From: a virus
DNA: 64,000 nucleotides
IMG/VR virus record: IMGVR_UViG_3300045997_000112
Span: 1 to 64,000 of that record
Strand: one strand, 5' to 3'
Made by a program: the position numbers and the translations under genes. Shown one piece after another: positions 1 through 15,788 of this stretch; position 1 is the stretch's first letter, and every line of letters begins with the position of its first letter. Below the pieces are notes generated by a model, which did not search any database, was not told where the DNA came from, and saw only the letters and a program-made list of their open reading frames with translations.

Positions 1-114
1 TTGGGCGTCACCAAGACCGTCAAGGTTGAGGCGACCGTCGACCCCATGGCACAGCTCAAGGCCGCCGCCGCCATCAAGAAGGCCAAGGCCAAGGCCGCGA
101 AGAAGTCCGCATGA
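1..114 (+). CDS. 3' end of hypothetical protein with Lys/Ala-rich tail (partial)
   Basis: Open frame from window edge with GC3 codon bias; stop overlaps next ATG (ATGA). Confidence 0.55.
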   Translation: MGVTKTVKVEATVDPMAQLKAAAAIKKAKAKAAKKSA

Positions 115-263
115 ACGACGACATCAAACTCTTCCTCATCAATCAGGCGCTCAAGGCAATCTGGGCGATCGATGACGTGATGGAGGCAGCAACCAGTCGG
201 GTGTCCAAGCGGCTCTACCGCGCTGAGCGCAAGATCCTCGCATCCCAGCGGGAGGTCTCATGA
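111..263 (+). CDS. small hypothetical protein (50 aa)
   Basis: ATGA overlaps at both ends, GC3 bias. Confidence 0.6.
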   Translation: MNDDIKLFLINQALKAIWAIDDVMEAATSRVSKRLYRAERKILASQREVS

Positions 264-475
264 GCTGGCAGGTGCGGGACATCGCGTGGACTGTCCAGAT
301 CGAGTGGAACGACTCGGAGGGCTCACCTGGTGTGGGCCTGTACGGCCCGTTCAAGACCCGTGAGGACGCAGAGGACTTCGCCCAGACCTGGGGCGAGGAC
401 GACACCGAGATCGGCGACACGTTCGTCGAGTTCATCAACACCGTGGAGAAGGAGGAAGACGATGGCGAAGGGTGA
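260..475 (+). CDS. acidic hypothetical protein
   Basis: GGAGG RBS, ATGA coupling, codon bias. Confidence 0.7.
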   Translation: MSWQVRDIAWTVQIEWNDSEGSPGVGLYGPFKTREDAEDFAQTWGEDDTEIGDTFVEFINTVEKEEDDGEG

Positions 476-1541: not shown

Positions 1542-2017
1542 CGTACCGCATCGAGAGCATCGAGGTCACCGACTTCAGCCTGGCCGATCGTGATGCCCTT
1601 GGTGTGATCCTGCTCGTGGACAGTGGGAGCTACACGTCGGAGCTGAGGTTCGGCTACACCTGCCTCCACGAGGAGACCGGTGTGGAGCTCAAGGGCATGT
1701 CGAACGAGGACATCGTGTTCTCAGACTTCATCGAGAACAACCCCGACCCCGACGGCTACATCCTGGCCACCAAGAACGGCAAGGGTGAGTGGGAGGCTGT
1801 CGAGGACAGTCTCTTCCTGACCGAGGACGACTACCTCACCCTCATCGACCGGCTGGAGATCCTGCTCACCCAACATTGGATGGAGTGCGAGGACGAGGCT
1901 CAGGCCACGTTCGCGCGCCTCATCCATGAGGTCAAGCACCCCGAGGAGAAGATCGACAAGGATCCCTGGTCGATCGATCACGGAGGGATCATCTGGGAGA
2001 TGGAGAGCCCCTTCTAG
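1538..2017 (+). CDS. acidic hypothetical protein
   Basis: ATGA coupling to ligase, codon bias. Confidence 0.75.
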   Translation: MTYRIESIEVTDFSLADRDALGVILLVDSGSYTSELRFGYTCLHEETGVELKGMSNEDIVFSDFIENNPDPDGYILATKNGKGEWEAVEDSLFLTEDDYLTLIDRLEILLTQHWMECEDEAQATFARLIHEVKHPEEKIDKDPWSIDHGGIIWEMESPF

Positions 2018-2135
2018 GGCCAAGGATGTTCTGTGGTCATGAGGCCCCGGACAGTGACAACCGCATGGGCGCAACTCCATCATTGGGAGCCCACATCGCC
2101 ACGTCGATTAGCCCACTGCACCACGAACATCCACA

Positions 2136-2201
2136 GCTCGGAGGTAGTACTCACGCCCACCGCCAACCCAAAAGTCGGTGGGCGTGCAGGTGCATCCGAG
2201 C
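2136..2201 (+). promoter_or_regulatory. extended stem-loop presenting CAACCCAAAAG in its loop
   Basis: CACGCCCACCG (2152-2162) pairs with CGGTGGGCGTG (2176-2186); outer stem GCTCGGA/TCCGAGC. Confidence 0.6.
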
Positions 2202-2258
2202 ACCACGGCAATGTCAGACGGCACTGCCAACATTGAAGTATCACTGAAGGAGAACAGA

Positions 2259-3632
2259 ATGAAGATCACCATCCCCGTCGCCGTCAGCATCCCCAACGGC
2301 GAGGGTCACATGCTCCAGATCGCGCTCACGCCCGAGGGCGTGCTCGGGCGGCTGGACACCGGCGTCAAGGGCCGTGCCAACCGCATCGCGCTGTACGCCG
2401 ACGACCGTGGCCACAAGACCACCGACCTGCCCGAGAACGAGATCCTGCTCATGCGGATCGGCGACGTCGAGATGGACGCGGACATGCTCCGTGCGCTCGT
2501 CGAGCGTGGCTACGCCACCGGTGACGAGGCCAGCATCGTGAACGCGCTCAAGAAGGCGTGGGAGCACGCGCCCATCCGGGTGCAGGACGGCATCAAGACC
2601 CAGGAGTGGATCGGCTCCACCACCACGCCGTCGTGGCCCGTCGAGGCCGCGCCCGTGGTCACCGCACCCGTCGTGCAGGTCACCGAGGCCAGCCCGGTCG
2701 AGGTCATCGCCCCCGTGGGCGAGCTGCCGAACATCGTCATGGACGCTGACACGGCCTCCTCGGCGCTCAAGGTGCACGACAACATGGCGGCCTACAAGGT
2801 GCCCGTCGCCGTCGAGGAGTGGGTGCCGGTCAAGTTCACGGACACCGACATCGACAGCATCGAGTACCTCGAGCGCGCCAAGAACGGCGGCTGGAACATC
2901 GCCATCACCGGCTCGACCGGCTGTGGCAAGTCCGCCCTGTGCTACAACACGGCGGTCAAGTGGGGCACCGCGTACGCGGCCATCCCGTTCTCGGAGGCCA
3001 CGGACACCACCGCGCTCTGGGACGACTCCCTGCTCGTGCCGGACGGCATGGGCGGCACCCGTTCGATGCGCGTGCTCACCGCTGCGGGCATGGTCGCCAA
3101 GTACGGCGGCGTCATGGAGTGGCAGGAGATCAACGGTGCGGCTGACGCCATGCTGACCGCCATCTACGGCGTGCTCGACTTCGGTCGGCAGATCACCCTG
3201 TCCAACGGGTCCACCATCCCGCTGCACAAGGACTGCATCATCATCGCCACCCAGAACCCGGTGGACGCCGCGCACAGCCACGCGTCGCACATGTCCACCG
3301 CGCTCGACCGCCGCTTCTGGCACGTCGAGATGGGCTACATGACCGAGATCGAGGAGAAGCTGGTCCCGGTCAAGGCGCTGCGTGAGATCGCGCAGGAGAT
3401 CCGCCGCTCCGACATCCAGCAGCCCTTCGGCACCGACTCCCTGGTCAAGGTCCACAAGGCCATCCAGGACTTCGGTCTCAAGCAGGGCGTCACCGGCATG
3501 ATCACCATGTTCCGCGACTCGGCTGCCCGAGAGATCGTGCGTCCCATCATTGACGTGCGGCTCACCGAGCTGGGCACCGCCTACAACCAGGAGGTCGAGT
3601 CCGACGTCGAAGAGGCCGACCTTTCTTGGTGA
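2259..3632 (+). CDS. MoxR/CobS-like AAA+ ATPase
   Basis: Walker A GSTGCGKS, variant Walker B VMEWQE, sensor IIATQNP, ALDRRF; GAAGGAG RBS before ATG 2259. Confidence 0.85.
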   Translation: MKITIPVAVSIPNGEGHMLQIALTPEGVLGRLDTGVKGRANRIALYADDRGHKTTDLPENEILLMRIGDVEMDADMLRALVERGYATGDEASIVNALKKAWEHAPIRVQDGIKTQEWIGSTTTPSWPVEAAPVVTAPVVQVTEASPVEVIAPVGELPNIVMDADTASSALKVHDNMAAYKVPVAVEEWVPVKFTDTDIDSIEYLERAKNGGWNIAITGSTGCGKSALCYNTAVKWGTAYAAIPFSEATDTTALWDDSLLVPDGMGGTRSMRVLTAAGMVAKYGGVMEWQEINGAADAMLTAIYGVLDFGRQITLSNGSTIPLHKDCIIIATQNPVDAAHSHASHMSTALDRRFWHVEMGYMTEIEEKLVPVKALREIAQEIRRSDIQQPFGTDSLVKVHKAIQDFGLKQGVTGMITMFRDSAAREIVRPIIDVRLTELGTAYNQEVESDVEEADLSW

Positions 3633-3636
3633 AAGG

Positions 3637-4068
3637 TCAGGGAAGGTGCGCCCACAACCGCCGAGTCTTGATCCGGTAGACGGTGTCTCGACTCTGAAGC
3701 CCGTACTCGGCCATGATCTCTTTCTGTGGCCGAGGGTCATCACGGATGGCCCGCACCTGTTCATTGGTAAGCCGAGCGTTGGGATGCCTTCGCTTGGCGT
3801 ACATGTCCTGCTGATTCTTGGCGGGCGTGCCAATGAACAGGTGCCCCGGGTTCACACACGACGGGTTGTCACAGCTGTGACAGACGTACATCCCTTCAGG
3901 AATGGGCCCAACGTGGATCTCGTAGGAGAAGCGATGGGCGTACATCTTGATTCCGGGTGCACCATTGAAGATCCCGTACCCGCTGCCGTTAGAAGCACGG
4001 GTCCAAAGCCAACACTCAGTTGGCTGACCCTTGACAACACCAAGCCAGAACCGCTCAATGGCATTCAT
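3637..4068 (-). CDS. HNH homing endonuclease
   Basis: CWLW...GYG...AHRFSY...VCHSCDNPSCVNPGHL...NQQDM signature; lower GC; opposite orientation to neighbours. Confidence 0.92.
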   Translation of the reverse strand: MNAIERFWLGVVKGQPTECWLWTRASNGSGYGIFNGAPGIKMYAHRFSYEIHVGPIPEGMYVCHSCDNPSCVNPGHLFIGTPAKNQQDMYAKRRHPNARLTNEQVRAIRDDPRPQKEIMAEYGLQSRDTVYRIKTRRLWAHLP

Positions 4069-4086
4069 TGGAGAATGCTATCCCCC

Positions 4087-4123
4087 GGTAGCCCGTCCAA
4101 CCCAAAAGCGCGGGCGGGCTACC
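4087..4123 (+). promoter_or_regulatory. hairpin with AACCCAAAAG loop upstream of vWA gene
   Basis: GGTAGCCCGTCC pairs with GGGCGGGCTACC (one G-U). Confidence 0.6.
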
Positions 4124-4142
4124 ACCAACCCCTGAAGGAGCA

Positions 4143-6200
4143 ATGATGGATTCCCGTCGCAACGCCGATCACGACATCGATCCGGCGATCGCGGCCCAAG
4201 GCAGAAGCCTCGGCCGCTACAACATCAGCTGGGCGCCCAAGAAGCAGAATGACGAGGCCCTGCGCGCCGTCACCAAGCAATGGGCCCAGGCCCTGGCCAA
4301 GGCGTGGAACGGTGGCCGCCCGGTCACCGTCAAGCACGGCAACGTTGGCGTGGGCGCCAGCACCACCACCGAGGATGACCTCGACATGATCTGGCTCGAC
4401 GACGCAGTGCTGCTGCCCCGTTCGGCCAAGGACCTCGCGGCTGCCGTCGGCATCGTGGTCCATGAGATCGGGCACCTGTTCTACACGCCCAAGCTCAGTG
4501 ACCGCTTCATCCAGGAGATCAACGCCCAGGGGCTGTTCCCGACCTTCAACATGGTCGAGGACGGCAAGCAGGAGATGAAGCTGCTGGCCTACCGGCCGGG
4601 CTTCGAGAAGTACCTGCGCTGGGCCATCCTGCGTCACCTGCTCGCCACCGTGCAGCCACAGACCATCCAGGCCCTGTACCCGGTCATCGCGGGGCGCACG
4701 TACCTCCCGGAGAACCTGAGGGCCAAGGCCCGAATGTTCTGCGCTATGGCATATGGCGACGACGTTGTCGATGAGTTCGACGACCTGCTGCAGGACTTCT
4801 ACGCCATTGACGTGTACGCCAACCCGATGGAGGCGGCCCAGATCATCTCCGACATCAAGAACCTGTTCCCCACTCAGGTGGGCTGCGGTTCGGCTCCCAC
4901 CAATGGGGACACCAAGGAGGACCCCAAGGACTGGAACCCGATCAAGGACCGCAAGAAGAAGTCCAAGAAGAAGGACAAGGACAAGGTCAGCAAGGACAAG
5001 GAGAAGAAGCCCGGGTCCGATGACGATGCCGAGCACGACGACCAGGAGAAGGACGCTGGCGGCGGCGACGAGGACATGGACTGGCTGGACGAGGACTTCG
5101 AGGAGGGTGAGGGCGAGGAGCAGGAGGGCGAGAAGGCCAAGGCCAAGTCCGATGCCGACCTCGACGTCTCCTCCGACTCTGACAGTGACGGTGACGGTGA
5201 CGAGGAGGACGAGAGCTCTGGCGAGTCCGAGGACGCCTCCAACGAGTCGGGTGGCGAGGGCGCTGGTGGTGCCTCCGATGCCCCGCCGCCGGATGCTCAG
5301 GGCGACGGGGGTGCTCCCGAGGAGAACTCCATCGCGCCCGAGGACCTGGGCACGCCCGAGGAGCTGCTGGAGAAGCTCCAGACCATGTCGGACTCGCTGC
5401 AGGACCGCATCGCCCAGGACTACGAGGAGGACTTCGAGCTGATCAAGTCCGAGGCGTTCGGCGATGGCAACATCCGCAAGCCGCTGTGGAACGAGACCGC
5501 CATGCAGCGCAACATGGTGGCGGCTCTCAAGCAGCTGGCCGAGCAGGCCAAGGGCGGGCTCGATCGTCGCCGTCCCAAGGGCAGGCTCAACGTTGGCCGC
5601 TATGCGCGTGGCCGGGACCGCATGGACATCGAGAAGATCGTGTTCGACAAGTTCCGTCCCAATGTTCAGGACGCGCTGGACATGGAGGTCGTCCTGCTCG
5701 TGGACAACTCCGGCTCCATCTACCACGTCCAGAACGAGCTCTCCGGCGTGATGTGGGCGCTGGTCACGGCGCTCGAGTCCGTCGGTGGTCCGGCTGTCAC
5801 CGTGGTGCTGTGGAACAGCAACTTCCAGCTCTGGAAGGTGCCCTCGGAGAAGTGGCGCGCCAAGTACGTGCCCACCATCCAGGCGACCGGTGGCACGTCT
5901 CCGGGTGAGGCCATCAAGTTCGCGGGCAAGCTGTTCAAGAACAGCCGCAAGAAGCAGAAGGTGTGCTTCATCCTCACCGACGGTTGGTGGTCCAACATGC
6001 AGGAGGCCAAGCTGCTGATCGAGGGCATGAAGAAGGCGTCCGACGTGGACACCTACATCCTCGGCTTCGGTGGCTTCGACCCGGCCAACATCAACGACTA
6101 CGGTGCCGTGGACGGCTCCGGGGGTGGCGTGGAGTCCGTGACCGACTTCATCTTCAAGGTGGTCGAGAAGCGCATTCAGCAGAAGATCGCCAACAGCTGA
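4143..6200 (+). CDS. CobT-like vWA domain protein (partner of the AAA+ ATPase)
   Basis: N-terminal HEIGH...FNMVED, long acidic linker, MIDAS elements LLVDNSGS, GGT, LTDG. Confidence 0.87.
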   Translation: MMDSRRNADHDIDPAIAAQGRSLGRYNISWAPKKQNDEALRAVTKQWAQALAKAWNGGRPVTVKHGNVGVGASTTTEDDLDMIWLDDAVLLPRSAKDLAAAVGIVVHEIGHLFYTPKLSDRFIQEINAQGLFPTFNMVEDGKQEMKLLAYRPGFEKYLRWAILRHLLATVQPQTIQALYPVIAGRTYLPENLRAKARMFCAMAYGDDVVDEFDDLLQDFYAIDVYANPMEAAQIISDIKNLFPTQVGCGSAPTNGDTKEDPKDWNPIKDRKKKSKKKDKDKVSKDKEKKPGSDDDAEHDDQEKDAGGGDEDMDWLDEDFEEGEGEEQEGEKAKAKSDADLDVSSDSDSDGDGDEEDESSGESEDASNESGGEGAGGASDAPPPDAQGDGGAPEENSIAPEDLGTPEELLEKLQTMSDSLQDRIAQDYEEDFELIKSEAFGDGNIRKPLWNETAMQRNMVAALKQLAEQAKGGLDRRRPKGRLNVGRYARGRDRMDIEKIVFDKFRPNVQDALDMEVVLLVDNSGSIYHVQNELSGVMWALVTALESVGGPAVTVVLWNSNFQLWKVPSEKWRAKYVPTIQATGGTSPGEAIKFAGKLFKNSRKKQKVCFILTDGWWSNMQEAKLLIEGMKKASDVDTYILGFGGFDPANINDYGAVDGSGGGVESVTDFIFKVVEKRIQQKIANS

Positions 6201-6208
6201 GCGCGCGT

Positions 6209-6238
6209 GGAGCACTGGGGCGCAAGTCCCAGTGTTCC
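6209..6238 (+). terminator. 13-bp hairpin with GCAA tetraloop after vWA gene
   Basis: GGAGCACTGGGGC-GCAA-GTCCCAGTGTTCC; no U tract. Confidence 0.5.
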
Positions 6239-6274
6239 CCGGGCAACTCAGCCCAACCCAAAATTGAAGGAGCA

Positions 6275-7198
6275 ATGATGAGTACGGAGAAGACCCACAA
6301 CGACATCAAGGTCAAGACGGTCTATGTCTCTGGCAGCCAGCTGTACTACGTGCACGGGCGCTACGCCAAGGGCGAGACCCCCAAGCTGTCCGGCGATGCC
6401 ATCCAGATGCCCAAGGGCCTCGACACGATCTGCGGGCCCAACTGCGAGCTGCTCAAGGGCCAGGGGAGCTGCAAGACCCACGGCGGAGCGGGCAAGCTCA
6501 GCGTCTCGTTCAGCGGATCCACCGCCCCCATGGTCAGCTACGTGGTCAGCCAGATCGGTGTGTCCGTCGACAAGACCATGAACCAGCTGTGGACACTGAA
6601 CACCCAGCAGGTCACCTCCCGATCGGTGGGCAACATCCTCTACCTGCCGTCCCTCGACGACATGGAGTGGGACCGCACGGACTGGGAGCACAAGAACAAC
6701 CCCATCAACAACCTGCACGCGCACGTCTGGAACGTGCTGCGCCAGCCCCCGAGCAAGTCCTCCCAGCTGGAGAAGGTGGCCGCACACAACCACGAGCGAG
6801 CCAAGAAGCTGTTCGAGGACCTGGTCAAGAAGATGACCCCGGCCGACGTGAAGAGCGCCCAGTACAAGCAGGGCATCGACGTGTTCTCCAACCGGAACAA
6901 CTTCCTCGCCTCATTGATGGGGGCCGTCAACACCTACCAGGGCTACTCGGCCCTGCAGCCCGCGCAGACCGCGTTCATCCACTCGACCATCCTCAAGATG
7001 GGCCAGCGGCAGTTCCCGGATGACGTGGCCAAGATCCTCGACTGCTACAAGAAGGTCGAGCTGGCCAAGGCGCATGAGGACGTCCCGTTCACCTACGACG
7101 AGGCCACCGTCAAGCGCGTCATGCTGTCCGGTCTGTACAAGAAGCCGGTGGAGAAGCCCAAGGTCGACCTCGCCAACGCGGTCGCTCTCCCTTTCTGA
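6275..7198 (+). CDS. hypothetical protein (~307 aa)
   Basis: GAAGGAG RBS, strong codon bias. Confidence 0.8.
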   Translation: MMSTEKTHNDIKVKTVYVSGSQLYYVHGRYAKGETPKLSGDAIQMPKGLDTICGPNCELLKGQGSCKTHGGAGKLSVSFSGSTAPMVSYVVSQIGVSVDKTMNQLWTLNTQQVTSRSVGNILYLPSLDDMEWDRTDWEHKNNPINNLHAHVWNVLRQPPSKSSQLEKVAAHNHERAKKLFEDLVKKMTPADVKSAQYKQGIDVFSNRNNFLASLMGAVNTYQGYSALQPAQTAFIHSTILKMGQRQFPDDVAKILDCYKKVELAKAHEDVPFTYDEATVKRVMLSGLYKKPVEKPKVDLANAVALPF

Positions 7199-7329
7199 GT
7201 GAGGCAGATGTCGACCTGTTGAAGCATCAGCTCATCAGGAACGTCACCACGGAGCAGGGCGAATTCATCCTCCGGCACTACGGGGAGCGGGCATACGCCA
7301 CCTGGCTGGCCCTAGGAGGAGGGGTGTAG
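7195..7329 (+). CDS. short coding frame without a clear start (possible -1 frameshift extension of upstream gene)
   Basis: GC3-biased open frame directly after C CCT TTC; only CTG/TTG starts available. Confidence 0.4.
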   Translation: MSEADVDLLKHQLIRNVTTEQGEFILRHYGERAYATWLALGGGV

Positions 7330-7331
7330 CG

Positions 7332-7535
7332 ATGGCAACCCAAAAGCGCCATCGCCTCCCCCGCCGACGTCACTGCAGCACTGGCAAGCTCCGCTTGCCC
7401 GACAGGGCATCTGCCCTCAGGAAGATCGAAACCCTCAAGCACGCCAACCCAGATCGGGGCTACCTCCCAACAAGGACGTACCACTGCCCGACGTGCAACG
7501 GTTGGCATCTCACAAGTAAGGAGTACGGATGGTGA
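7332..7535 (+). CDS. small basic zinc-finger protein
   Basis: RTYHCPTCNGWHLTSK motif, GGAGGAGG RBS. Confidence 0.75.
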   Translation: MATQKRHRLPRRRHCSTGKLRLPDRASALRKIETLKHANPDRGYLPTRTYHCPTCNGWHLTSKEYGW

Positions 7536-7837
7536 TCAACATCCAGATCGCCGGGTTCGCCCTCGAGGTGAACCTCCTCGGCAATGAGCTCCAACGAGCC
7601 CTCAATGTTGAGTGGAAGACCCCATGGGCCGATGGTGGCCTGCACACCGGCTTCGACCGGTCCAAGTCCGCCAAGGTCTGTGTGGTCTGCGCCAAGCTCT
7701 CGCGCAACTGCAAGTGCGACAAGGAGACCCGCGTGCTGGTCACCCCAGCACTGCTCGGCCACACCCTCATGTCGATGGACCACGAGATGTACCACCACAT
7801 GACCGAGACCGTCTGTGGAGAGGAGGACGACGAGTGA
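7529..7837 (+). CDS. hypothetical protein with CxxC...CxC
   Basis: AAGGAG RBS, overlap with previous gene. Confidence 0.7.
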   Translation: MVINIQIAGFALEVNLLGNELQRALNVEWKTPWADGGLHTGFDRSKSAKVCVVCAKLSRNCKCDKETRVLVTPALLGHTLMSMDHEMYHHMTETVCGEEDDE

Positions 7838-7953
7838 TCGAGAGCCCGTTGTACGTGCCCTGCCCCACCTGTCATGCAGATGCCAACCAGCGCTGCATCG
7901 ACATGGTGACGGGCGCGCCCATGTTCGAGTACCACAACACCAGGACGGCCTGA
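7834..7953 (+). CDS. zinc-finger microprotein
   Basis: GTGA coupling; VPCPTCHA...RC...H pattern. Confidence 0.65.
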   Translation: MIESPLYVPCPTCHADANQRCIDMVTGAPMFEYHNTRTA

Positions 7954-7987
7954 CCGTCCACATCAATGAAGGAGCACTGAAGTAGCA

Positions 7988-8314
7988 ATGATCACAGTTC
8001 CAATGCACAGGCAAGCGGTCATCCATGTGGAGACCTGGGTCAATGGCGAGGAGCGCCAGTACCGGAAGGTCCATGCGATGTTCCTCGATGACGTGAACCA
8101 GTGGCGGCTGAACGCGTTCGACTACGCCACTCGCACCCAGAAGAAGACGTGGACCGTTCGGGAGAAGTGGCACCTCACGAACAACATCCACAACCAGGGA
8201 GTCCTGGTCCCGCCCGAGGTCATGGCCGCCGGAACGCAGGCGATCCTGGACCAGATCAAGGACGACCTCAAGGTCCTCGAGGCCCAGCGCGCGTCCATCG
8301 AGGGGAGCCTCTGA
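7988..8314 (+). CDS. hypothetical protein
   Basis: codon bias, RBS. Confidence 0.7.
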   Translation: MITVPMHRQAVIHVETWVNGEERQYRKVHAMFLDDVNQWRLNAFDYATRTQKKTWTVREKWHLTNNIHNQGVLVPPEVMAAGTQAILDQIKDDLKVLEAQRASIEGSL

Positions 8315-8490
8315 TGGCCTGGGCCGTGACGCAGACCGTGAAGAAGTACTACCCCGAAGACGATCGGGACCGCGCGGAGACCGACCAGTTCACCTACTGG
8401 ATCTACGCCACCAAGGAGGCCGCAGACGCGGCCATCGAGAAGCTGGGCAAGGGCTTCGCCCTGTCCGAGACCGAGAAGGAGGCGTGGTGA
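8314..8490 (+). CDS. hypothetical protein
   Basis: TGATG coupling. Confidence 0.65.
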   Translation: MAWAVTQTVKKYYPEDDRDRAETDQFTYWIYATKEAADAAIEKLGKGFALSETEKEAW

Positions 8491-8660
8491 CGCACCCCCT
8501 GAGTACCCCAGACATCTGGATCGAGTGCAGCAACTGTGACGAGGAGACCCTCCATGTCGAGGAGGGTGACGAGCGCACCTGCACCAAGTGCGGCCAGGTC
8601 AACGAGTACCTGGACTGGGACTACAACGCCGAGCACTACTACTGGACGGCCAGCAGCTGA
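8487..8660 (+). CDS. zinc-ribbon microprotein
   Basis: GTGA coupling; CSNC...CTKC. Confidence 0.65.
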   Translation: MTHPLSTPDIWIECSNCDEETLHVEEGDERTCTKCGQVNEYLDWDYNAEHYYWTASS

Positions 8661-8998
8661 TGCCTGAGTTCGAGAGCAAGGTTGAGAGGGAGCTCGCGGG
8701 CTCGTTCACGCTGGCAATGTTGGCCGAGGGCATCGAGATCGAGATGGTCAACCGGATCCTGCTAACTGTGCAGGACGCCGTGGACAACAACGACTCCGAC
8801 GAGTGCACCCATGGCACCTGGACCATGACCGAGCGCGGCTACATCCGCTACTGGGCGGCCGAGACCGACGAGAAGGGTGAGCTCTGGGCCTCCCACAAGG
8901 GCTGGACCGAAGACGGTGACGAGGTCTACCACCTGGAGTGTGACCACTGCGGGTTCAAGACCACCGTGGACAGTGACACCGTCATCCACTGGGACTGA
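8660..8998 (+). CDS. hypothetical protein
   Basis: TGATG coupling; C-terminal CDHC. Confidence 0.7.
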   Translation: MPEFESKVERELAGSFTLAMLAEGIEIEMVNRILLTVQDAVDNNDSDECTHGTWTMTERGYIRYWAAETDEKGELWASHKGWTEDGDEVYHLECDHCGFKTTVDSDTVIHWD

Positions 8999-8999
8999 G

Positions 9000-9048
9000 T
9001 TGTCCACACATCAATAGAGTTCTAGACTCTAGACACACTAGAAGGAGA
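9000..9048 (+). promoter_or_regulatory. AT-rich intergenic promoter/RBS region
   Basis: TAGAGT and TAGACT (TAnnnT) hexamers, three CTAG, GAAGGAG RBS. Confidence 0.45.
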
Positions 9049-9052
9049 ACTG

Positions 9053-9271
9053 ATGGACAACCCCGACGAGCGCGAGCCGCTCATCGACATCATCGAGGAT
9101 CTGGTGAAGCAAGCATGCTGGCTTCCCGCAGAGCTCGATCGTCCGGCAATGCTGGACTCCATGGCACTGAGCACCTATGCCAATGCCATCCGGTTCCTCG
9201 CCAATGAGGGCCGGGTCACCATCACCCACGAGTACGGGCGGCGGGTCATCGCCACCGTCCCCGAGCCCTGA
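9053..9271 (+). CDS. hypothetical protein
   Basis: strong RBS. Confidence 0.7.
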   Translation: MDNPDEREPLIDIIEDLVKQACWLPAELDRPAMLDSMALSTYANAIRFLANEGRVTITHEYGRRVIATVPEP

Positions 9272-9681
9272 TGCAGACGTTCCTGCCCTATGCCGACTTC
9301 GATCTGTCGGCGCAAGCACTCGATCGTCAACGACTGGGCAAGCAGCGGGTGGAGAACCTGCAGATCCTCAAGGCCCTTCTCATCGGTGGAGGCTGGCAGA
9401 ACCACCCCGCCGTCAGGATGTGGCGTGGGTACGAGGGCTCGCTGCTGCAGTACCAGATCCGCATCTGCGCGGAGTGGTCACGGCGTGGCTACGCAGACAC
9501 CTGCTTGGCCAAGTCGTTGCTACTCGCAGACGGACTGTCCTCCCAGGCGCCGCCCTGGTTGGGACGACAGGAGCTCCACCTGTCCCACCAGTCCAACCTG
9601 GTTCGCAAGGACCCACAGCACTACGGACCGATGTTCCCCAATGTCGGTCCTGATCTGGCCTACTACTGGCCCCAACAATGA
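9271..9681 (+). CDS. pyrimidine-dimer DNA glycosylase-like protein (MSMEG_6728 family)
   Basis: MQTFLPY...LD..RLGKQRVE, GWQNHPAV.MW.G, PPWLG, SHQSNL.RKDP, YYWP. Confidence 0.9.
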   Translation: MQTFLPYADFDLSAQALDRQRLGKQRVENLQILKALLIGGGWQNHPAVRMWRGYEGSLLQYQIRICAEWSRRGYADTCLAKSLLLADGLSSQAPPWLGRQELHLSHQSNLVRKDPQHYGPMFPNVGPDLAYYWPQQ

Positions 9682-9693
9682 AGGAGAACTGAA

Positions 9694-9933
9694 GTGGCAA
9701 AGGACGTTTTCATCATCGCGTGGTGCGATGAGCCCGGGTGTCGGGACGAGCACCACGACGAGATGGGCCAGACGGTCCAGACCATCGAGATCTGGGTCAA
9801 CGTCAAGGGCGGTCGCAAGACCCACCCCATCAAGGTGGACATGTGCGCCGAGCACATCGCCCAGTACCGAGGCTGGTTCACCAAGCTGGCCAAGTACGAC
9901 CAGACCAACGACCCGATCGAGGTGGAGAGCTGA
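9694..9933 (+). CDS. Lsr2 dimerisation-domain-like protein
   Basis: MAK-beta strand...TIEIWVN...IKVDMCAEHIAQYR resembles the Lsr2 N-domain; no RGR domain. Confidence 0.45.
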   Translation: MAKDVFIIAWCDEPGCRDEHHDEMGQTVQTIEIWVNVKGGRKTHPIKVDMCAEHIAQYRGWFTKLAKYDQTNDPIEVES

Positions 9934-10199
9934 TGTCAACCCAAAAGCCCACGTACGCCCACGCTGTCGCGTGGCACGCCTACGTCCAGGCCCCCGCGTA
10001 CGCCTCCAAGGCGAGCCTCAAGGAACTGGAGGAGAAGGAGGCCCCTGCGACCGCCCTCTTCGAGATCTGGCGCGAGGACGAGGAGGACGGGAAGGTGCGC
10101 CCCACCGGCCAGTGGTTCGTCTACGAGAAGGTGACCTGCCCGGTGGCCATCAAGTCCATCGAAGACAGGTTCGCGTCTGAAGGTTGGGGCAAGCCATGA
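9933..10199 (+). CDS. hypothetical protein
   Basis: TGATG coupling. Confidence 0.7.
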   Translation: MSTQKPTYAHAVAWHAYVQAPAYASKASLKELEEKEAPATALFEIWREDEEDGKVRPTGQWFVYEKVTCPVAIKSIEDRFASEGWGKP

Positions 10200-10501
10200 G
10201 CACGCAGGAGATCAGCTCCATCAGCCTGGAGTGCCGGGACATGCGCCACGCATGGCGCCGCCTCGGCGACAACATCCTCGTCGAGCGCAAGGGCAAGATT
10301 CGCGTGTTCACCCGAACGTTGGAGTGCCCACGCTGCGAGACCCTCCGCATTGACACGTACCGGATCACGGCCCAGAGCGTGGAGCGTGTGCACAGCCGGT
10401 ACGCCTACCCCAAGGGCTACCACGTCAAGGGCGGCCTCAAGGTTGGGGACGCTCGGTACCTGCTGTTCAAGGACATGACGTTCAAGGAGGAGCTGAAGTG
10501 A
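10196..10501 (+). CDS. Cys/His zinc-binding hypothetical protein
   Basis: CRD.RHAW...CPRC...Y.YP.GY pattern. Confidence 0.75.
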   Translation: MSTQEISSISLECRDMRHAWRRLGDNILVERKGKIRVFTRTLECPRCETLRIDTYRITAQSVERVHSRYAYPKGYHVKGGLKVGDARYLLFKDMTFKEELK

Positions 10502-10740
10502 GTCTCATCTCAGCTCCGGAGCAGCCCTTCGGCCCTGGTGCCCTGTGTGGCAACTGCGGGCACATGGCGATGCGCCACGACGAGAAGGGCTGCCATGGAG
10601 TCGACCCCGCAGTCGGCTGCCGGTTCGGCAGCAGGGGCACCGAGGCCCGTCCGCACAAGTGCTCGGCATTCCTCTGGAACGGGATCCGCTGGCCTCGGCC
10701 GTGGGAGTCCTCTGGCTACGAACAGGAGAAGAAGAAGTGA
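10498..10740 (+). CDS. Cys/His-rich hypothetical protein
   Basis: CGNCGH...H...C...C...C. Confidence 0.7.
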   Translation: MSLISAPEQPFGPGALCGNCGHMAMRHDEKGCHGVDPAVGCRFGSRGTEARPHKCSAFLWNGIRWPRPWESSGYEQEKKK

Positions 10741-10844
10741 ACCTCATCCGAGACATCAAGACGGTGTTCGCGGCCGTCATCTGCATCATCTGGTTCGCCA
10801 TCCTCCCCGAGGATGAGGACGACGATTGGCAGGGGATCACATGA
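10737..10844 (+). CDS. small membrane protein
   Basis: GTGA coupling; one hydrophobic helix. Confidence 0.55.
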   Translation: MNLIRDIKTVFAAVICIIWFAILPEDEDDDWQGIT

Positions 10845-10954
10845 GCAGCCTGCGCTGTCCCTGCTGCGACCACCTGTGGCCGGATCAGGCGACCTATCAG
10901 GACCACCGCGAGTACATGGCCAAGTTCGGCATGTGGCCGGAGGTGGAGGAATGA
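10841..10954 (+). CDS. C2H2-like microprotein
   Basis: ATGA coupling at both ends; CPCC...H. Confidence 0.55.
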   Translation: MSSLRCPCCDHLWPDQATYQDHREYMAKFGMWPEVEE

Positions 10955-11460
10955 CCGACGAAGAGCTCAAGACGTACGTCTACACCGGTGTGGGTGCAGC
11001 CTCCGTCTGCTGGGAGGGTGGCACAGGGTCGGCAGTCTTCCGCGAGGACCTGGCGACCGAGGTGGCCGAGCATCTGCTCAAGGTGATCCGTCGCCACGAG
11101 CAGGACGTCATGGAGGACATCGCCAGGCGCATCCGGAAGATGAAGCCCGGATACCCGCAGACGTGGGACGGCAAGGTCCTGGTCGGTCGATCGATGGCCG
11201 CCAAGGTTGCCCTTGAGGGCTCCTACGTGGAGGACGCCATGGTGGAGAAGCCCGTCGTCGAGGATGAGGGGTGCGGGTGCTGGCTGTGCGTCAACGACCG
11301 CGCCGAGCTGATCGAGGACGTAACCCAGAGGCTCACCTACCGCAGCCGGATGATCGTGTGTGCCCTCTGTGGCAACAAGCGCTGTCCCAAGGCCACCAAC
11401 CATGAGCTGGACTGCACCCTGTCCAATGATCCGGGGCAACCAGGGTCGAGGTTCGCATGA
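10951..11460 (+). CDS. hypothetical protein with C-terminal Cys cluster
   Basis: CGCWLC...MIVCALCGNKRCPKATNHELDCT.SN.PGQPGS. Confidence 0.75.
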   Translation: MTDEELKTYVYTGVGAASVCWEGGTGSAVFREDLATEVAEHLLKVIRRHEQDVMEDIARRIRKMKPGYPQTWDGKVLVGRSMAAKVALEGSYVEDAMVEKPVVEDEGCGCWLCVNDRAELIEDVTQRLTYRSRMIVCALCGNKRCPKATNHELDCTLSNDPGQPGSRFA

Positions 11461-11792
11461 GCCTCCGAGAGAAGTGCATCGAAGTCGGTCGTGAGGCCAT
11501 GGGCCGGAGTTCCAACTGGCGCTGGTGGGCTCCTCGGCACCTGGAGAGGCTGTTCGATCTCTGGGAGCCGATGATCCGCTCCGACGAGCGAGAGCGGCAG
11601 GAGATCGACTTCAATGGCCCAGCCCGCGAGGACATCCGGCGCGCACTCCGCGCCCAGATCGCCGCCGACATTGAGGCGCGCTGCGACAAGCTCTCGCACA
11701 GGGATCGCATCGCGACGCCGCCCGAGTGGCCGGTATGCGCGAAGTGCGTGCCGTACTTCAACATCGCCCAAGGTGAGTCCAGTGGGGACTGA
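11457..11792 (+). CDS. hypothetical protein
   Basis: ATGA coupling. Confidence 0.65.
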   Translation: MSLREKCIEVGREAMGRSSNWRWWAPRHLERLFDLWEPMIRSDERERQEIDFNGPAREDIRRALRAQIAADIEARCDKLSHRDRIATPPEWPVCAKCVPYFNIAQGESSGD

Positions 11793-11979
11793 ACGCCGAC
11801 CCACCGGATGGAGCCCCAGTGGTGGGCGTTTCGACAACCCGGCCCGACGGCCCCGCGTATCGGACGACGAGATCTTGTACCCCATTGGATCTCACGAGTG
11901 CTGGTGCGGGAAGCCCCAGGGGCATGACTGGCCGGGCAAGGCTGATGGCGCACCACACCCGAAGGAGGAGAAGCCGTGA
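11782..11979 (+). CDS. hypothetical protein
   Basis: CWCG...HDW motif; start uncertain. Confidence 0.5.
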   Translation: MGTERRPTGWSPSGGRFDNPARRPRVSDDEILYPIGSHECWCGKPQGHDWPGKADGAPHPKEEKP

Positions 11980-12308
11980 GGGACTACCGAGTCGAACGGG
12001 TGCAGGACGTGGCCCGTACTGAGATGGGCTACTGCGTGCAGGATCGGGACGCCAACTGGTGCACCGCCCACAACGCGCTGAAGTTCCCGGGCGAGGAGGC
12101 ATGCCGAGTGATGACGGTGGCCTACGTCCTCGCGGAGTCGGTCGCCGAAGCCATGGAGGACCTCATCAGTGCCGAGATCCGCGCCATCATTCCCGTCGTC
12201 CGGCGCAACGCCGACCCAGTCGACGTGTTCATCTCCGTCCAGGAGATGTGCGCCCGCACCGCCAGTACCGCAGGAAGAAAGACCGACACAACAGGAGTAC
12301 CCAACTGA
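11976..12308 (+). CDS. hypothetical protein
   Basis: GTGA coupling, RBS. Confidence 0.65.
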   Translation: MRDYRVERVQDVARTEMGYCVQDRDANWCTAHNALKFPGEEACRVMTVAYVLAESVAEAMEDLISAEIRAIIPVVRRNADPVDVFISVQEMCARTASTAGRKTDTTGVPN

Positions 12309-12568
12309 TGAGCTATCCCGTGATGTTCGTCCTCGAGATCGAGGTCAACAATGACGCCTTCTTCACCCAGTACGCGTCATCCGACCACGAGAACCCGGAC
12401 GAGCCAGAGTTCGCCCCCGAGCTGGAGGTGGCCCGACTGCTGCGCGAGGCCGCCACGCAGATCGAGAACCGGGGCATCGAGGCCCGCTACCTGCACGACT
12501 ACAACGGCAACCCCGTCGGGTCCTACGGCTTCGTCAACTCCGATGGTGAGCGGAAGGAGCCGTCGTGA
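12308..12568 (+). CDS. hypothetical protein
   Basis: IEVNNDAF...EVARLLR...DYNGNPVG pattern, TGATG coupling. Confidence 0.75.
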   Translation: MSYPVMFVLEIEVNNDAFFTQYASSDHENPDEPEFAPELEVARLLREAATQIENRGIEARYLHDYNGNPVGSYGFVNSDGERKEPS

Positions 12569-12810
12569 CGCTGCGGAAGAAGACGAGTGGCAAGACGGTG
12601 TGCAAGGAGTGCCCCACCCGCGTGGAGCTCAGCCCTGCCCAGATGAGCAGGCTCATGTTCGAGGCCCGTGAACTGATCTCCATGTTCCGCGACGTGGTCC
12701 AGAGCCAGACCGGACAGGACGACCAGTGGTGTGCGCGGGTGATCGAGGAGATCGACGCATACCGAGCGGGACAGGGCTGGTCCCCTGACGGATTCGGAGG
12801 GGAGTCATGA
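12565..12810 (+). CDS. hypothetical protein
   Basis: GTGA coupling. Confidence 0.65.
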   Translation: MTLRKKTSGKTVCKECPTRVELSPAQMSRLMFEARELISMFRDVVQSQTGQDDQWCARVIEEIDAYRAGQGWSPDGFGGES

Positions 12811-12998
12811 CCGACCCAAAATCCTGCCTGGTGTGCGGGGCTGATGCGGCCGACTGGGGCATCTGTGGGCCCTGCGAGGATGCCTACCGCCTCCACCAGC
12901 AGATCGACAAGAACCGGAAGGCCATGGGCCTGACCGGCGGGTGCTACCGGTGCGGGTCCAAGTTCCCGGATCACCGCTGCTCCATGGTGACGTCATGA
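12807..12998 (+). CDS. Cys-rich microprotein
   Basis: three CxxC pairs. Confidence 0.65.
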   Translation: MTDPKSCLVCGADAADWGICGPCEDAYRLHQQIDKNRKAMGLTGGCYRCGSKFPDHRCSMVTS

Positions 12999-13267
12999 AC
13001 GGGCGGCCCGACGAGTACCGGATGCGCTGCTCCGTGTGTCACAAGGGAGTGAAGCTCCTGGTGAATCCCGGGGAGACCAGGGCCAGTGCCCTGGAGAAGC
13101 TCTCTCGCCAACCGGGATGGACCGTGATCGATGGGGAGGTCATCTGCTCCGACAGCCACGATCGGGAGGGCATCTCCCTGCGCGGGGTCTTCTGGGGCCT
13201 GGGCATCTCGATGATCCTGTGGGGCCTCATCATGCTCACGGCCTGGGCGGTGCTCCAGTGGCTCTGA
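12995..13267 (+). CDS. zinc-finger membrane protein
   Basis: CSVC...C..H plus C-terminal TM helix. Confidence 0.65.
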   Translation: MNGRPDEYRMRCSVCHKGVKLLVNPGETRASALEKLSRQPGWTVIDGEVICSDSHDREGISLRGVFWGLGISMILWGLIMLTAWAVLQWL

Positions 13268-13527
13268 AGCGGATGTGCGACTGCAGCTGCACGATCGACT
13301 TCCCGGGCCAGCACGAGGTTGGCGAGGACTACGTCGTCTACGGCGGCAGGGACATCTGCCAGCAGTGTCTGGAGCTCTGCCGGGAGTGGCGGCCCTGGGG
13401 AGGCGAGCGGGTTCTCACCGAGATGGAGAAGTCGATCGCCACTGTCTTCGGCCCGTTGATCACCCAGCAGCTCGAGGCCACGTCCACATTCAGGAAGTGG
13501 ATGGGGCGTGAATCAAATCCAAGCTAA
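13258..13527 (+). CDS. Cys-rich hypothetical protein
   Basis: CDCSC...CQQC. Confidence 0.6.
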   Translation: MALKRMCDCSCTIDFPGQHEVGEDYVVYGGRDICQQCLELCREWRPWGGERVLTEMEKSIATVFGPLITQQLEATSTFRKWMGRESNPS

Positions 13528-13583
13528 CCGTAGAGCCATCATTGGTAGTACCATGGTTGGGATGGCTATATCTAGGAGGCGTC

Positions 13584-13841
13584 ATGGCCGAAGTGCTTGA
13601 GGACTTCAGCTTCACCAGCCGGGCCGAGGGATTCCCCGTCCGATACGACTGGGATGCATGGCTGGACGGCCGCGTGTGGAAGCTCCAGCACGGAGTCGAC
13701 TTCACCATCTCGCTGGCCAACCTGCGGAACTCCGTGTTCGTCGCAGCCAGCAAGCGGAACCTGAAGGTCCGCACGACCACCAACAAGGACGAGGGAACCG
13801 TCATCATCCAGGCGTTCCCCCAGGACGGTCACGCCGTCTAA
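13584..13841 (+). CDS. small putative DNA-binding protein
   Basis: AGGAGG RBS; YDWDAWLDG..W.L..G.DF pattern; AT-rich upstream region with TACCAT. Confidence 0.7.
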   Translation: MAEVLEDFSFTSRAEGFPVRYDWDAWLDGRVWKLQHGVDFTISLANLRNSVFVAASKRNLKVRTTTNKDEGTVIIQAFPQDGHAV

Positions 13842-13849
13842 CCCCAGAC

Positions 13850-13891
13850 CAGCCCCCGGCGCGTCTCGTCCCCCGTGCGCGCCGGGGGCTG
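13850..13891. terminator. bidirectional terminator hairpin where the two arms converge
   Basis: CAGCCCCCGGCGCG / CGCGCCGGGGGCTG 14-bp inverted repeat between convergent stops. Confidence 0.8.
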
Positions 13892-13904
13892 CTCCATCTG
13901 ATAG

Positions 13905-15338
13905 TTACTCGTCGGACGCCGACTGAACCTTCTGCCCGAAGATCTGGCTGAGAACACCGCCCTGAGTCGTTCGGGATGCCTCGATGCGAACGGTCTCCTT
14001 GGACTCCCCCAACTTGGCGAAGACGGCGGCCAGCTTGGCGAACCGATCCATCTCCTTGCCTACGACTGGGTCGTGGTAGCCAGAGGTCTCCTCGGCGAAC
14101 TGGGCGAACATCACCCGGGACGCCTGCATCTCGAGGATCGCTTCCGTGAGGGCGGCCATCTGCTCCCGAGTCCGAATCTGGACTGGCACATGGAACTTGC
14201 ACTGAGCCCCAGGCTGGAACGCTGGGCAGTTGGACGAGAGTGAGCAGGTGTTGCAGGACCTGACTGGAACAGCCGATCGCCGCAGGAGCGGTTGGTCGCT
14301 GATGACCATCCTGCCTTCCTCATCTGGCTGGAAGGACCGCACCACCTCAGTTTGGATGCCCGGCAGACTGGTGCCCGTTATCGGATAAGTGTCATTGGAT
14401 GTAATGGGATAGCGCTCGGGCAGCAATGGGATGACATTTTGGACTTGATCCAGACCCTCACTATCCGAAACCAAGGGAGTGGGTGCGGAAGATCGGGTAG
14501 GAGCCGATTCGTCCGAACTCTCGGATAGTACGTCGAGTATGGAAGAGTAGCCGGACTCCAGCCACCGGAACAGCCGGATGGTGTAGAGCTCGCGCTCGGC
14601 CGCGTTGCCGTCGATCAGCATCTGCAGGTCGCACCCCATGTCCTCGACGAACTTGGCGTGGCGCTTGAGCTGAGCGGCCTGCTCATTCTTGGGCGCACGG
14701 ACGACCCAGTTCCCTCCTGTGGGGACGTAGATATCACTGTGACGAAGAGCGGAGGACCAGGTGGACATGAAGATCGTGTCGAAGAGCTCGTGCCTGACGT
14801 CTCGGTCGAGGCTGAACCCGTGACAGTGGAAGGAAGTCTGGTACTCCCGCTTCAAGATTCCAATGACATTCAATGTCTGCCGGTCTTGAAGGGACGAAAC
14901 TGGTACAACTACATCCGTGTAGGACTCTCCAAGGTACTTCAGGTGGTCCAGGCCGTAGGACGGATTCCACGAGACCCAGAACTTCTCCGCGAACCGATCC
15001 TCGTCGTAGAAGTCCTCCCTCCGCTCGAGGATGTACTCCTTGCCCAAGGTTGGGGCGTCGAACTCGGTGAAGGCGAAGAACTTGCCGTACCACTGATGCA
15101 GGAACTTCTCGTAGCCCTCGGCGCCCGCGATCAGGTCGTCCTGGGTGGCATCCGTGGCCCATGCCGCACTGTCGTACAGGTAGAGCCGGACGTCATCAGG
15201 GAACCGATCGAGGTTGTTCTGAGGCGACTTGACCCGCCGCCGGAAGGAGCTGAGGGACAGGCCCATGTCGCGGACGCCCGCCCCGTAGAGCAGGTCCACA
15301 TCATTGGGAGCCTCAGCGCCCATCCAGATGAACTTCAC
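13905..15338 (-). CDS. putative TGT/DpdA-like TIM-barrel protein with C-terminal four-Cys domain
   Basis: LYLYDS, FTEFD, FHCHGF, STWS echo TGT-like barrel strands; CNTC-x4-C-x8-C followed by a helical region. Confidence 0.5.
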   Translation of the reverse strand: MKFIWMGAEAPNDVDLLYGAGVRDMGLSLSSFRRRVKSPQNNLDRFPDDVRLYLYDSAAWATDATQDDLIAGAEGYEKFLHQWYGKFFAFTEFDAPTLGKEYILERREDFYDEDRFAEKFWVSWNPSYGLDHLKYLGESYTDVVVPVSSLQDRQTLNVIGILKREYQTSFHCHGFSLDRDVRHELFDTIFMSTWSSALRHSDIYVPTGGNWVVRAPKNEQAAQLKRHAKFVEDMGCDLQMLIDGNAAERELYTIRLFRWLESGYSSILDVLSESSDESAPTRSSAPTPLVSDSEGLDQVQNVIPLLPERYPITSNDTYPITGTSLPGIQTEVVRSFQPDEEGRMVISDQPLLRRSAVPVRSCNTCSLSSNCPAFQPGAQCKFHVPVQIRTREQMAALTEAILEMQASRVMFAQFAEETSGYHDPVVGKEMDRFAKLAAVFAKLGESKETVRIEASRTTQGGVLSQIFGQKVQSASDE

Positions 15339-15386
15339 TTAGGACACCTGCAGAGGTCCTCGCGCTGCTCACATTTCTCGCACCAG

Positions 15387-15788
15387 TCATCCGAGATCAT
15401 GCTCGACTCCCTTCATCAACTGGCCCCAGGTGGGACGCTCCGGCCGCCATCGGGGATCCACGAAGTCAGAGGCGCCCACCAGCAGGACAGTGATGCCCTG
15501 CTCGAAGATCTTCCGAGCCTCCATGTCGTCAGGGGTCATGGCGAAATGGACGTGTGCCTGCACCCTCTCGTAGGCCAGGGCCTCAAGGACGGTCCCCTCG
15601 TGGATGCGTGCCCAACCCAAAAGCCCGTTGCGCTTGAGGTAGCCCTCGGTCTGGTCCTGGGTGAGGCTGCTGGCGAGGACCACCCGGTAGTTGCCCACCA
15701 GCACCTTGTAGAGCACCTGGCCGAGCTGGAACGGGTGTCCTTGGTCCGTCCTGATCAGCCCGTCGAACGGGACAACGACCGTCGACAT
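15387..15788 (-). CDS. HAD-like fold protein (degenerate)
   Basis: N-terminal VVVPFDGLI resembles hhhDxDG. Confidence 0.5.
   Translation of the reverse strand: MSTVVVPFDGLIRTDQGHPFQLGQVLYKVLVGNYRVVLASSLTQDQTEGYLKRNGLLGWARIHEGTVLEALAYERVQAHVHFAMTPDDMEARKIFEQGITVLLVGASDFVDPRWRPERPTWGQLMKGVEHDLG

Follow-up and report, generated by a model that had tools for sequence, protein, structure and literature searches.

A strand-specific 11-nucleotide motif near translation starts in the rightward gene block of an uncultured sediment phage

The virus record IMGVR_UViG_3300045997_000112 contains an 11-nucleotide (nt) motif, CAACCCAAAAG, whose distribution supports a cis-element that is under selection, confined to one strand, and linked to where rightward genes start. 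The stretch analyzed here, called the window, is the first 64 kb of this 105,425-bp single-contig record, which CheckV rates as complete. The DNA comes from a metagenome of freshwater sediment, and neither the phage nor its host is in culture. Our tentative reading is that early transcripts present the motif as an operator or processing signal in single-stranded RNA, where a dedicated factor recognizes it and thereby affects translation or stability. A preliminary description of the window had proposed a regulatory element and listed five mechanisms without choosing among them: boxB-like antitermination, a translational operator, an RNA processing site, a hairpin promoter, and a polar stoperator. 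The regulatory element and three displays of the motif in hairpin loops hold up in the analysis below, while the hairpin promoter is disfavored and the features of boxB are not found.

Abundance and strand bias of the motif

Exact copies of CAACCCAAAAG occur in the window at 2164, 4098, 7336, 9937, and 15613, where shuffled sequences lead one to expect 0.02. All lie on the + strand and no reverse-complement copy is present, as had been reported earlier. Three further exact + strand copies fall outside the window (genome 103735, 104148, and 105217), giving 8 exact copies on the + strand of the genome and 0 on the − strand against an order-3 Markov expectation of 0.003. These whole-genome strand statistics place the motif far above background, and among words of lengths 9 to 12 it is the most over-represented in the genome. 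Across the genome, allowing up to 1 mismatch yields 11 copies on the + strand and 0 on the − strand (0.1 expected per strand), and up to 2 mismatches yields 21 and 5 (4.2 expected). The nine-base core CAACCCAAA is found ten times, adding sites at 708 and 6254 to the exact copies. Conservation is limited to the block (g)C-CAACCCAAAAG-y-c, and no second conserved element, at either fixed or loose distance, was found beside the motif among the copies.

The near copies at 708, 6254, and 53989 of the earlier description were recovered on the + strand, and the one it placed at 12813 in fact begins at 12812. They comprise CAACCCAAAGA at 708–718, which has two mismatches and lies within the ligase gene; the one-mismatch copies CAACCCAAAAT at 6254–6264 and CCACCCAAAAG at 53989–53999; and the degenerate, two-mismatch copy CGACCCAAAAT at 12812–12822, whose status is uncertain. 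A one-mismatch sister of the 53989 copy, CGACCCAAAAG, is found outside the window at genome 74597, also on the + strand. The possibility that the motif is a repeat of a larger mobile unit was rejected, the sole exception being the 105217 copy, with which a structured repeat of 64 nt ends; in the second copy of this repeat, at 104875, the motif is degenerate.

Seven of the exact copies, together with the 6254 copy, belong to one block of rightward genes. Beyond what the preliminary description noticed, the block continues over the contig end, where it contains the three additional exact copies.

Association with translation starts

Every one of these 8 in-block copies begins within the range −95 to +4 relative to a start codon served by a strong ribosome-binding site (RBS), at offsets of −43, −67, −58, −95, −48, −24, +4, and +4. 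The same is true of 21% of block positions, for a range that was chosen after the data were seen. In total, the starts of about nine genes of the probable early block have the motif nearby. A position map confirmed that copies stand just before an RBS (4098 and 6254) or directly after an ATG (at 7332, 9933, and 12807). The motif at 2164–2174 lies 95 nt before ATG 2259 of an AAA ATPase gene, and the one at 4098–4108 precedes ATG 4146 of a VWA gene by 48 nt, with a leftward HNH gene starting 30 nt away. At 6254–6264 the near copy ends 1 nt before the GAAGGAG RBS of gene 6278–7198. The 7336–7346 copy makes up codons 2–5 of a 67-amino-acid (aa) protein with predicted zinc binding, and the 9937–9947 copy makes up codons 2–5 of gene 9933–10199, whose ATG overlaps the upstream TGA. 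The degenerate 12812 copy follows ATG 12807 by 5 nt and brings in the rare codons CCA (8%) and AAA (1%).

An ATG is found 4–5 nt upstream of three of the eight exact copies (7336, 9937, and 103735) and of the degenerate 12812 copy, against a background of 3.1% (P ~1.4e-3). The reading frame through the motif varies among these ATG-adjacent sites. Relatives of the protein that starts at 7332 have variable N-termini, so the 7336 copy is not imposed by the protein. Together, the differing frames and variable N-termini indicate that the link to the start codon exists at the nucleotide level rather than through a shared peptide.

Display in hairpin loops

Three exact copies sit in the loops of hairpins with stems of 8 to 12 bp. 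The hairpin at 2152–2186 has an 11-bp perfect stem and a 13-nt loop (−23.6 kcal/mol, z −4.9), that at 4087–4123 has a 12-bp stem and a 13-nt loop (−24.8 kcal/mol, z −4.3), and that at 7329–7355 has an 8-bp stem and an 11-nt loop (−14.0 kcal/mol, z −4.8). In each case none of 200 shuffles was as good. The three stems are unrelated in sequence and the 7329 stem buries ATG 7332, both as first described. A perfect stem of at least 7 bp closes a random 11-nt stretch just 0.29% of the time, yet 2 of 10 motif copies have one; for stems of at least 5 bp the figures are 3.4% and 4 of 10. The predicted accessibility of the motif is 0.78 in its real contexts versus 0.69 when it is implanted at random block positions (P 0.02).

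The loop display is real and non-random, yet confined to a minority of copies. The preliminary description missed that three of the eight exact copies, and no more, lie in significant hairpins. No significant enclosing stem is present at 9937, 6254, 103735, 104148, 105217, or 15613, and the imperfect hairpin whose loop holds the 708 near copy (~690–737) is no better than shuffles (z −0.8). Several of the stemless copies are followed by a hairpin within 3–11 nt (11 nt in the case of 9937), and pairing is predicted between the first half of the 105217 motif and a GTTGG upstream of it.

Two base pairs bear on the strand and molecule in which the stems form. The 4098 stem is continuous solely through a U4096·G4114 pair (T4096 with G4114 in the DNA). 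We also compared contigs of four DNA runs with the window, and strain variants are drawn from the differences listed. A strain about 99.5% identical, represented by contigs of two other sediment runs, has C7330>T, which turns a C-G pair of the 7329 stem into U·G; the same strain has G7346>A, which alters the final motif base and is synonymous (AAG>AAA). Both wobbles would become A·C mismatches in a structure formed by the opposite strand. The wobble pairs are modest evidence for structure on the + strand RNA.

Copies inside leftward genes

Three + strand copies lie within leftward genes. The exact copy at 15613–15623 is inside gene 15387–15788, some 1.8 kb past the point where the rightward block ends, and the 53989–53999 copy is inside gene 53268–54425; both are read on the coding strand as CTT TTG GGT. 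The third is the 74597 copy. The earlier claim that such copies force rare codons is borne out: across the three sites CTT accounts for 6%, TTG for 9%, GGT for 16%, and TTT for 3% of the codons for their amino acids. The 708 copy likewise brings rare codons into the ligase gene, CAA (6%) and AAA (1%). Beyond what had been noticed before, + strand copies inside leftward genes are enriched, with 3 seen versus 0.17 expected after synonymous shuffling of all leftward genes. These copies would be absent from sense mRNAs, so a model built on mRNA needs either rightward antisense transcripts or a second use of the motif at the DNA level.

A proposed single-stranded RNA signal and its alternatives

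The start-codon context, the ATG adjacency, the display in loops with unrelated stems, and the wobble pairs are the grounds for reading the motif as an RNA operator or processing signal. In this model (g)C-CAACCCAAAAG-y would be a cis-acting signal of the rightward block, read as a single strand on the + transcript. It would be offered either in a hairpin loop of 11–15 nt or in an unstructured patch, always near a translation start. It would be bound by a factor that recognizes its sequence, most likely a phage protein, and the bound factor would tune or shut off the translation or stability of about nine cistrons. The RNA-level action, the protein nature of the reader, and the direction of the effect are all things that we infer.

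Several observations weigh against this model. Five of the eight exact copies lack a significant enclosing stem, and four copies, 43–95 nt upstream of a start codon, are too far away for simple ribosome blocking. An mRNA-only model does not explain the copies at 15613, 53989, and 74597. The early timing of the block is assumed from its gene content. Finally, no RNA-binding protein or nuclease that would read the motif was identified among the proteins scanned.

We rank the translational operator or processing site above a polar DNA operator of the stoperator kind, which is nevertheless the alternative that survives best, although we regard it as unlikely. Here a monomeric protein on an asymmetric double-stranded site would block rightward RNA polymerase, shutting off the early block and stopping read-through into leftward genes. 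The site is indeed asymmetric, 11–13 bp, and near-exact, with about ten copies in short intergenic spaces or over start codons in one orientation, in likeness to published L5-type sites (PMC9283540; PMC3203893). Such an operator accounts for the + strand copies at 15613, 53989, and 74597 as a block on antisense rightward transcription, and for a strand rule that holds genome-wide. In both arms of cluster A phages, however, the sites are oriented along the direction of transcription, which is opposite to what is seen here for the copies in leftward genes. The three loop displays with unrelated stems, the U·G pairs, and the ATG adjacency are also left unexplained. No cognate monomeric two-domain helix-turn-helix repressor was seen in about 90 proteins scanned with Pfam or PHROGs, and no integrase among the proteins scanned, and a separate palindromic operator candidate, TTCAC(C/G)GTGAA, already stands in three copies at the block start.

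Less probable still is that the motif loads an elongation factor onto RNA polymerase during transcription, either through nascent RNA (nut/boxB) or through the non-template DNA of the bubble. The latter is how ops/RfaH works, where the signal is read on the single-stranded non-template DNA of the transcription bubble. The + strand is the non-template strand and matches the RNA, the copies lie in leaders and intercistronic regions with several terminator-like hairpins nearby, and a single-stranded reader suits looped and open copies alike; those in leftward genes could act on any rightward polymerase. Against this stand about ten sites only 0.4–2.6 kb apart, far more than in known systems, and hairpins without U tracts, which make the target of read-through doubtful. 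No boxA partner, no GNRA-like pentaloop, and, among the proteins scanned, no N-like or NusG-like gene was seen. For boxB-like antitermination in particular, the loops of 11–15 nt, the lack of boxA, and the number of sites led us to set aside this part of the preliminary description.

A broader version of single-stranded recognition would cover all copies at once, and we hold it to be improbable to a similar degree. Any + strand occurrence of one 11-nt word would be recognized in single-stranded nucleic acid: in loops and open patches of early mRNA, and in the late genes on rightward antisense transcripts or on the non-template strand. A dedicated reader, perhaps one among the block's many small zinc-binding proteins, of which one has its start within such a hairpin, would time early translation and police antisense transcription. 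If this were true, it would be a family of loop-displayed operators without a described counterpart.

That the motif is a single-element or hairpin promoter for early genes seems quite unlikely, even though copies lie 21–95 nt upstream of start codons, often past terminator-like hairpins, and in distant relatives the corresponding region has promoter-like cassettes that are repeated. No second element stands at a fixed spacing, and the motif is unlike a sigma-70-type consensus. The 7336, 9937, and 12812 copies are just inside genes, the 6254 copy at 1 nt from its RBS leaves no room for a leader, and no gene could be served by the 708 and 15613 copies. The loops of N4-type hairpin promoters are 3 nt long, and most copies here have no hairpin. 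No phage RNA polymerase or sigma factor was found among the proteins scanned, nor any large protein bearing DxDGD; the leftward arm opens with two large proteins, which are low-complexity. The hairpin promoter of the preliminary description is accordingly disfavored. A two-part promoter was rejected because no element co-occurs with the motif.

We consider it very unlikely that the motif is a polar DNA mark unrelated to transcription, for example a nick site, a nuclease signal akin to Chi, or a signal for primase or replication. Its strand is constant across the genome regardless of gene direction, and the phage has two HNH genes. Phages of the T5 type have specific nicks on one strand (PMC10644984), and the complement of the motif resembles the NrS-1 primase site, TTTGGTTA (PMC8718748). 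Such a mark would not explain the clustering in 17 kb beside start codons, the loop display, or the ATG adjacency; eleven bases are long for Chi, and recognition by a prim-pol was rejected because the primase is DnaG-type and not an archaeo-eukaryotic primase (AEP) prim-pol.

The weakest alternative, and one to which we give hardly any credence, is RNA–RNA pairing, in which leftward (late) mRNAs containing the exact complement would pair with early-mRNA loops: the complement is written in three leftward genes against codon bias and the near-identity of the copies suits base pairing, but by prediction it is mostly paired in those mRNAs (0.12–0.28 unpaired versus a null of 0.35), there are only three sites, and no other complement of at least 8 nt occurs on any transcribed strand, which also led us to reject a phage-encoded antisense partner.

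Other candidates were discarded more briefly. The flanks lack the clear C-over-G excess of a rho-utilization site. The string C CCA AAA fits the slippery-heptamer pattern of a −1 frameshift site, yet most copies are non-coding or in the wrong frame. Pairing of the motif with helix 16 of 16S rRNA or with the anticodon loop of tRNA-Pro is a conceivable further reading on which nothing here is built. A scan for intrinsic terminators found none at the sites, downstream of which the sequence is not T-rich. Rfam covariance models gave nothing at the gathering score and nothing at the sites with E ≤5.

The interest of the motif lies partly in its setting, as phage early blocks consist mostly of unknown genes under lineage-specific control and few of their signals have been worked out in phages other than T4, lambda, T7, and the mycobacteriophages. 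The signal is a clean one: its eight copies are identical and keep strictly to one strand, and their context is that of start codons. The natural variation of stems around a fixed loop is a ready design for reporters with loop and compensatory-stem changes. An RNA operator would imply a regulon under post-transcriptional control in a GC-rich phage, the closest cultured relatives of which are actinobacteriophages, and possibly a compact orthogonal pair of operator and reader. A DNA stoperator would extend that mechanism past the temperate phages of cluster A to a large, apparently lytic myovirus.

The 67-aa protein and other candidate readers

The basic 67-aa protein encoded on the + strand at 7332–7535 conserves the pattern C-x-TGK-x-R ... 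P-x-R-x-Y-x-C-P-x-C-x-G-W-H-L-T-S, which suggests C-C-C-H zinc binding. Its family has members of 60–70 aa in 336 clusters at E ≤0.001 and has PHROG matches of unknown function. It matches no Pfam family, and its AlphaFold model (predicted local distance difference test score 82) has no fold match in PDB. Identification as ribosomal protein bL32 was rejected, the weak match (E 0.047) not being recovered with the family profile. As a reader of the motif this protein is a candidate only. Other candidates encoded in the block are a small basic zinc protein at 10241 and a 306-aa protein at 6278. The block proteins gave no PHROG or Pfam match to the RegA or RegB families.

The phage and its rightward gene block

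The phage has a GC content of 63–68% and encodes a tail sheath, baseplate J, a portal, a family A DNA polymerase, a DnaB helicase, a DnaG-type primase, RecA, and collagen-like fibers. From this gene set it is assigned as a myovirus; it is large and appears to be lytic. Its nearest cultured relatives are distant actinobacteriophages, namely Streptomyces phage BRock, with 34% identity in the sheath, and Gordonia phages, with ~30% in a CobT-like protein.

Gene maps were built from GC content at third codon positions and codon log-odds, and domains were assigned from Pfam. The rightward block runs on the + strand for about 17.1 kb, from genome 102135 across the contig end to 13841 (positions 1–13841 in the window), and all genes from 13905 to 102080 are leftward. 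A coiled-coil gene that exits the right end of the contig (genome 105275–105425) resumes at its left end (window 1–114) in a shifted frame. The block is therefore continuous, as one gene spans the contig junction, and the shift in frame implies that the record was cut within this gene with a few bases missing or duplicated. The contig ends show no terminal repeat. The block contains about 35 mostly small unknown genes, as well as a DNA ligase, an AAA ATPase, a VWA protein, and a DenV-like glycosylase, and from this content we take it to be a block of early, accessory genes.

Small early genes are gained and lost among near-identical strains. In strains from two other sediment runs, 264–361 is replaced by 445 other bases, and both 10495–10733 (gene 10498–10740) and 11248–11782 are absent. 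A free-standing HNH endonuclease gene (3637–4068, − strand; PF13392, E 1e-11) lies between the AAA ATPase and VWA genes; in Gordonia phage ChisanaKitsune these two genes are just 38 nt apart. A second HNH gene was found by the Pfam scan at genome 101472–102080, also on the − strand.

The divergent junction beside this second gene (genome 102081–103166, ~1.1 kb) has no convincing gene and contains direct repeats (TATCGCGGCATACA, two copies) and a candidate promoter, TTGGCA-N16-TAACCT; ChisanaKitsune has a similarly sized gap at the equivalent junction. At the convergent junction of the arms (13842–13905) there is a GC-rich hairpin (CCCCGGCGCGC ... GCGCGCCGGGG) that is probably a bidirectional terminator. 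It has a weak, sub-threshold Rfam match to the Streptomyces small RNA Scr3202 (E 1.1).

The three exact copies of the palindrome TTCAC(C/G)GTGAA (genome 102935–102945, 103701–103711, and 104483–104493) all fall in non-coding gaps within the first 2.4 kb of the block, one of them 23 nt upstream of the 103735 motif. The palindrome looks like a candidate classical dimeric operator at early promoters. Seven block genes share an extended RBS region, GAAGGAG[AC]A[AC] (window 2246, 4134, 6266, 7968, 9041, and 9680; genome 105264), two of which are exactly identical over TGAAGGAGCAATGATG; the extended pattern occurs once on the other strand and itself resembles a start-associated sequence. The second most over-represented word family in the genome comprises CAACATTG and related CAANNTTG words on both strands, with CCAACATTG occurring 11 times on the + strand and 5 times on the − strand (0.6 expected). 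A word of the CAACATTG family lies, for example, at 2228–2235, between the 2164 hairpin and the RBS of the AAA gene.

Relatives and their repeated signals

A near-identity DNA search of phage records gave no match, and a related-locus search of viral and metagenome contigs gave no relative. Relatives of the VWA protein were found at 48–54% identity, one of them (P0003) encoded on a 107.8-kb contig. A scan of viral contigs for the motif with an RBS returned chance matches alone, on unrelated, mostly AT-rich contigs, in which tblastn of the block proteins found nothing. The motif CAACCCAAAAG is missing from five distant relatives (DNA polymerase ~45% identical).

Distant relatives do have repeated signals of their own. 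One of them, G002 (46% GC), has between 12258 and 19270 a strand-specific two-part cassette, CCTGTGAGTTT-N10/11-(TC)GGCGTGTCG, about seven times in 7 kb; it lies 60–110 nt upstream of gene starts and has the look of early promoters or operators that form a family specific to the phage. In Gordonia phage ChisanaKitsune a block of this kind, with small genes followed by an AAA ATPase and a CobT-like protein, contains CTCCGGGTG-plus-terminator cassettes. Repeated signals particular to each lineage are therefore the rule in this block, and the form described here was seen in neither G002 nor ChisanaKitsune.

Comparison with known systems

The closest functional precedents are RegB and RegA of T4. 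RegB (at RegB/S1 cleavage sites) cuts an 11-nt unpaired motif in early intergenic and initiation regions, where strong sites share a consensus, and RegA represses at initiation regions; the effect in T4 is a coordinated post-transcriptional shut-off of early genes (PMC3014915). Signals in early intergenic and initiation regions, some of them in coding sequence, and an unpaired target are shared with the present motif, with the early timing here assumed from gene content. The T4 signals, however, are a GGAG core in the RBS (RegB) or an AU-rich operator over the AUG (RegA), whereas the motif here is separate from the RBS. The hairpin-loop display and the antisense-strand copies in other genes are also without a parallel in T4.

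The stoperators of cluster A phages (L5 gp71; PMC9283540) are similar in being asymmetric sites of about 13 bp, near-exact and multi-copy, that lie oriented in short intergenic spaces or over starts and stops. Their orientation follows transcription in both arms, whereas here the 15613, 53989, and 74597 copies in leftward genes keep the + strand. They are also spread genome-wide in temperate phages with a known repressor, while the motif here is concentrated in one block and is found in three RNA-type hairpin loops.

The start-associated sequences (SAS) and extended SAS (ESAS) of cluster K (PMC3203893) are likewise repeats particular to one lineage, all in one orientation, that mark the translation starts of some non-structural genes; inverted repeats accompany some of them. 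SAS include the RBS and have a narrow, close upstream spacing, whereas the motif here ranges from −95 to +4 with a separate RBS. In ESAS it is the inverted repeats that are conserved, whereas here the stems are unrelated and the loop is conserved.

The Com-mom system of phage Mu, the coat operator of MS2, and lambda N-boxB each depend on a small phage protein that recognizes an RNA hairpin, which lies at or close to a start codon or leader, as may be the case here. The MS2 operator hairpin holds the AUG, and so does the hairpin at 7329–7355. Com is a small zinc protein that activates translation (PMC6483171). These systems differ in having one or two sites with defined stems and short loops, as opposed to about ten sites with long loops, mostly stemless. 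Lambda nut combines boxA with a short conserved hairpin with a five-base loop at one site per operon, whereas here the loops are of 11–15 nt, there is no second block, and the sites number about ten. An N4-type hairpin promoter has a 5–7 bp stem and a 3-nt loop and is used by a virion RNA polymerase, in contrast to the longer loops here and the lack of any RNA polymerase domain found. Intrinsic terminators have a GC-rich stem, a short loop, and a U tract, a combination that the motif sites do not have. Most likely, then, the signal is novel, yet of a general kind known in phages, that of lineage-specific start-associated or polar regulatory repeats.

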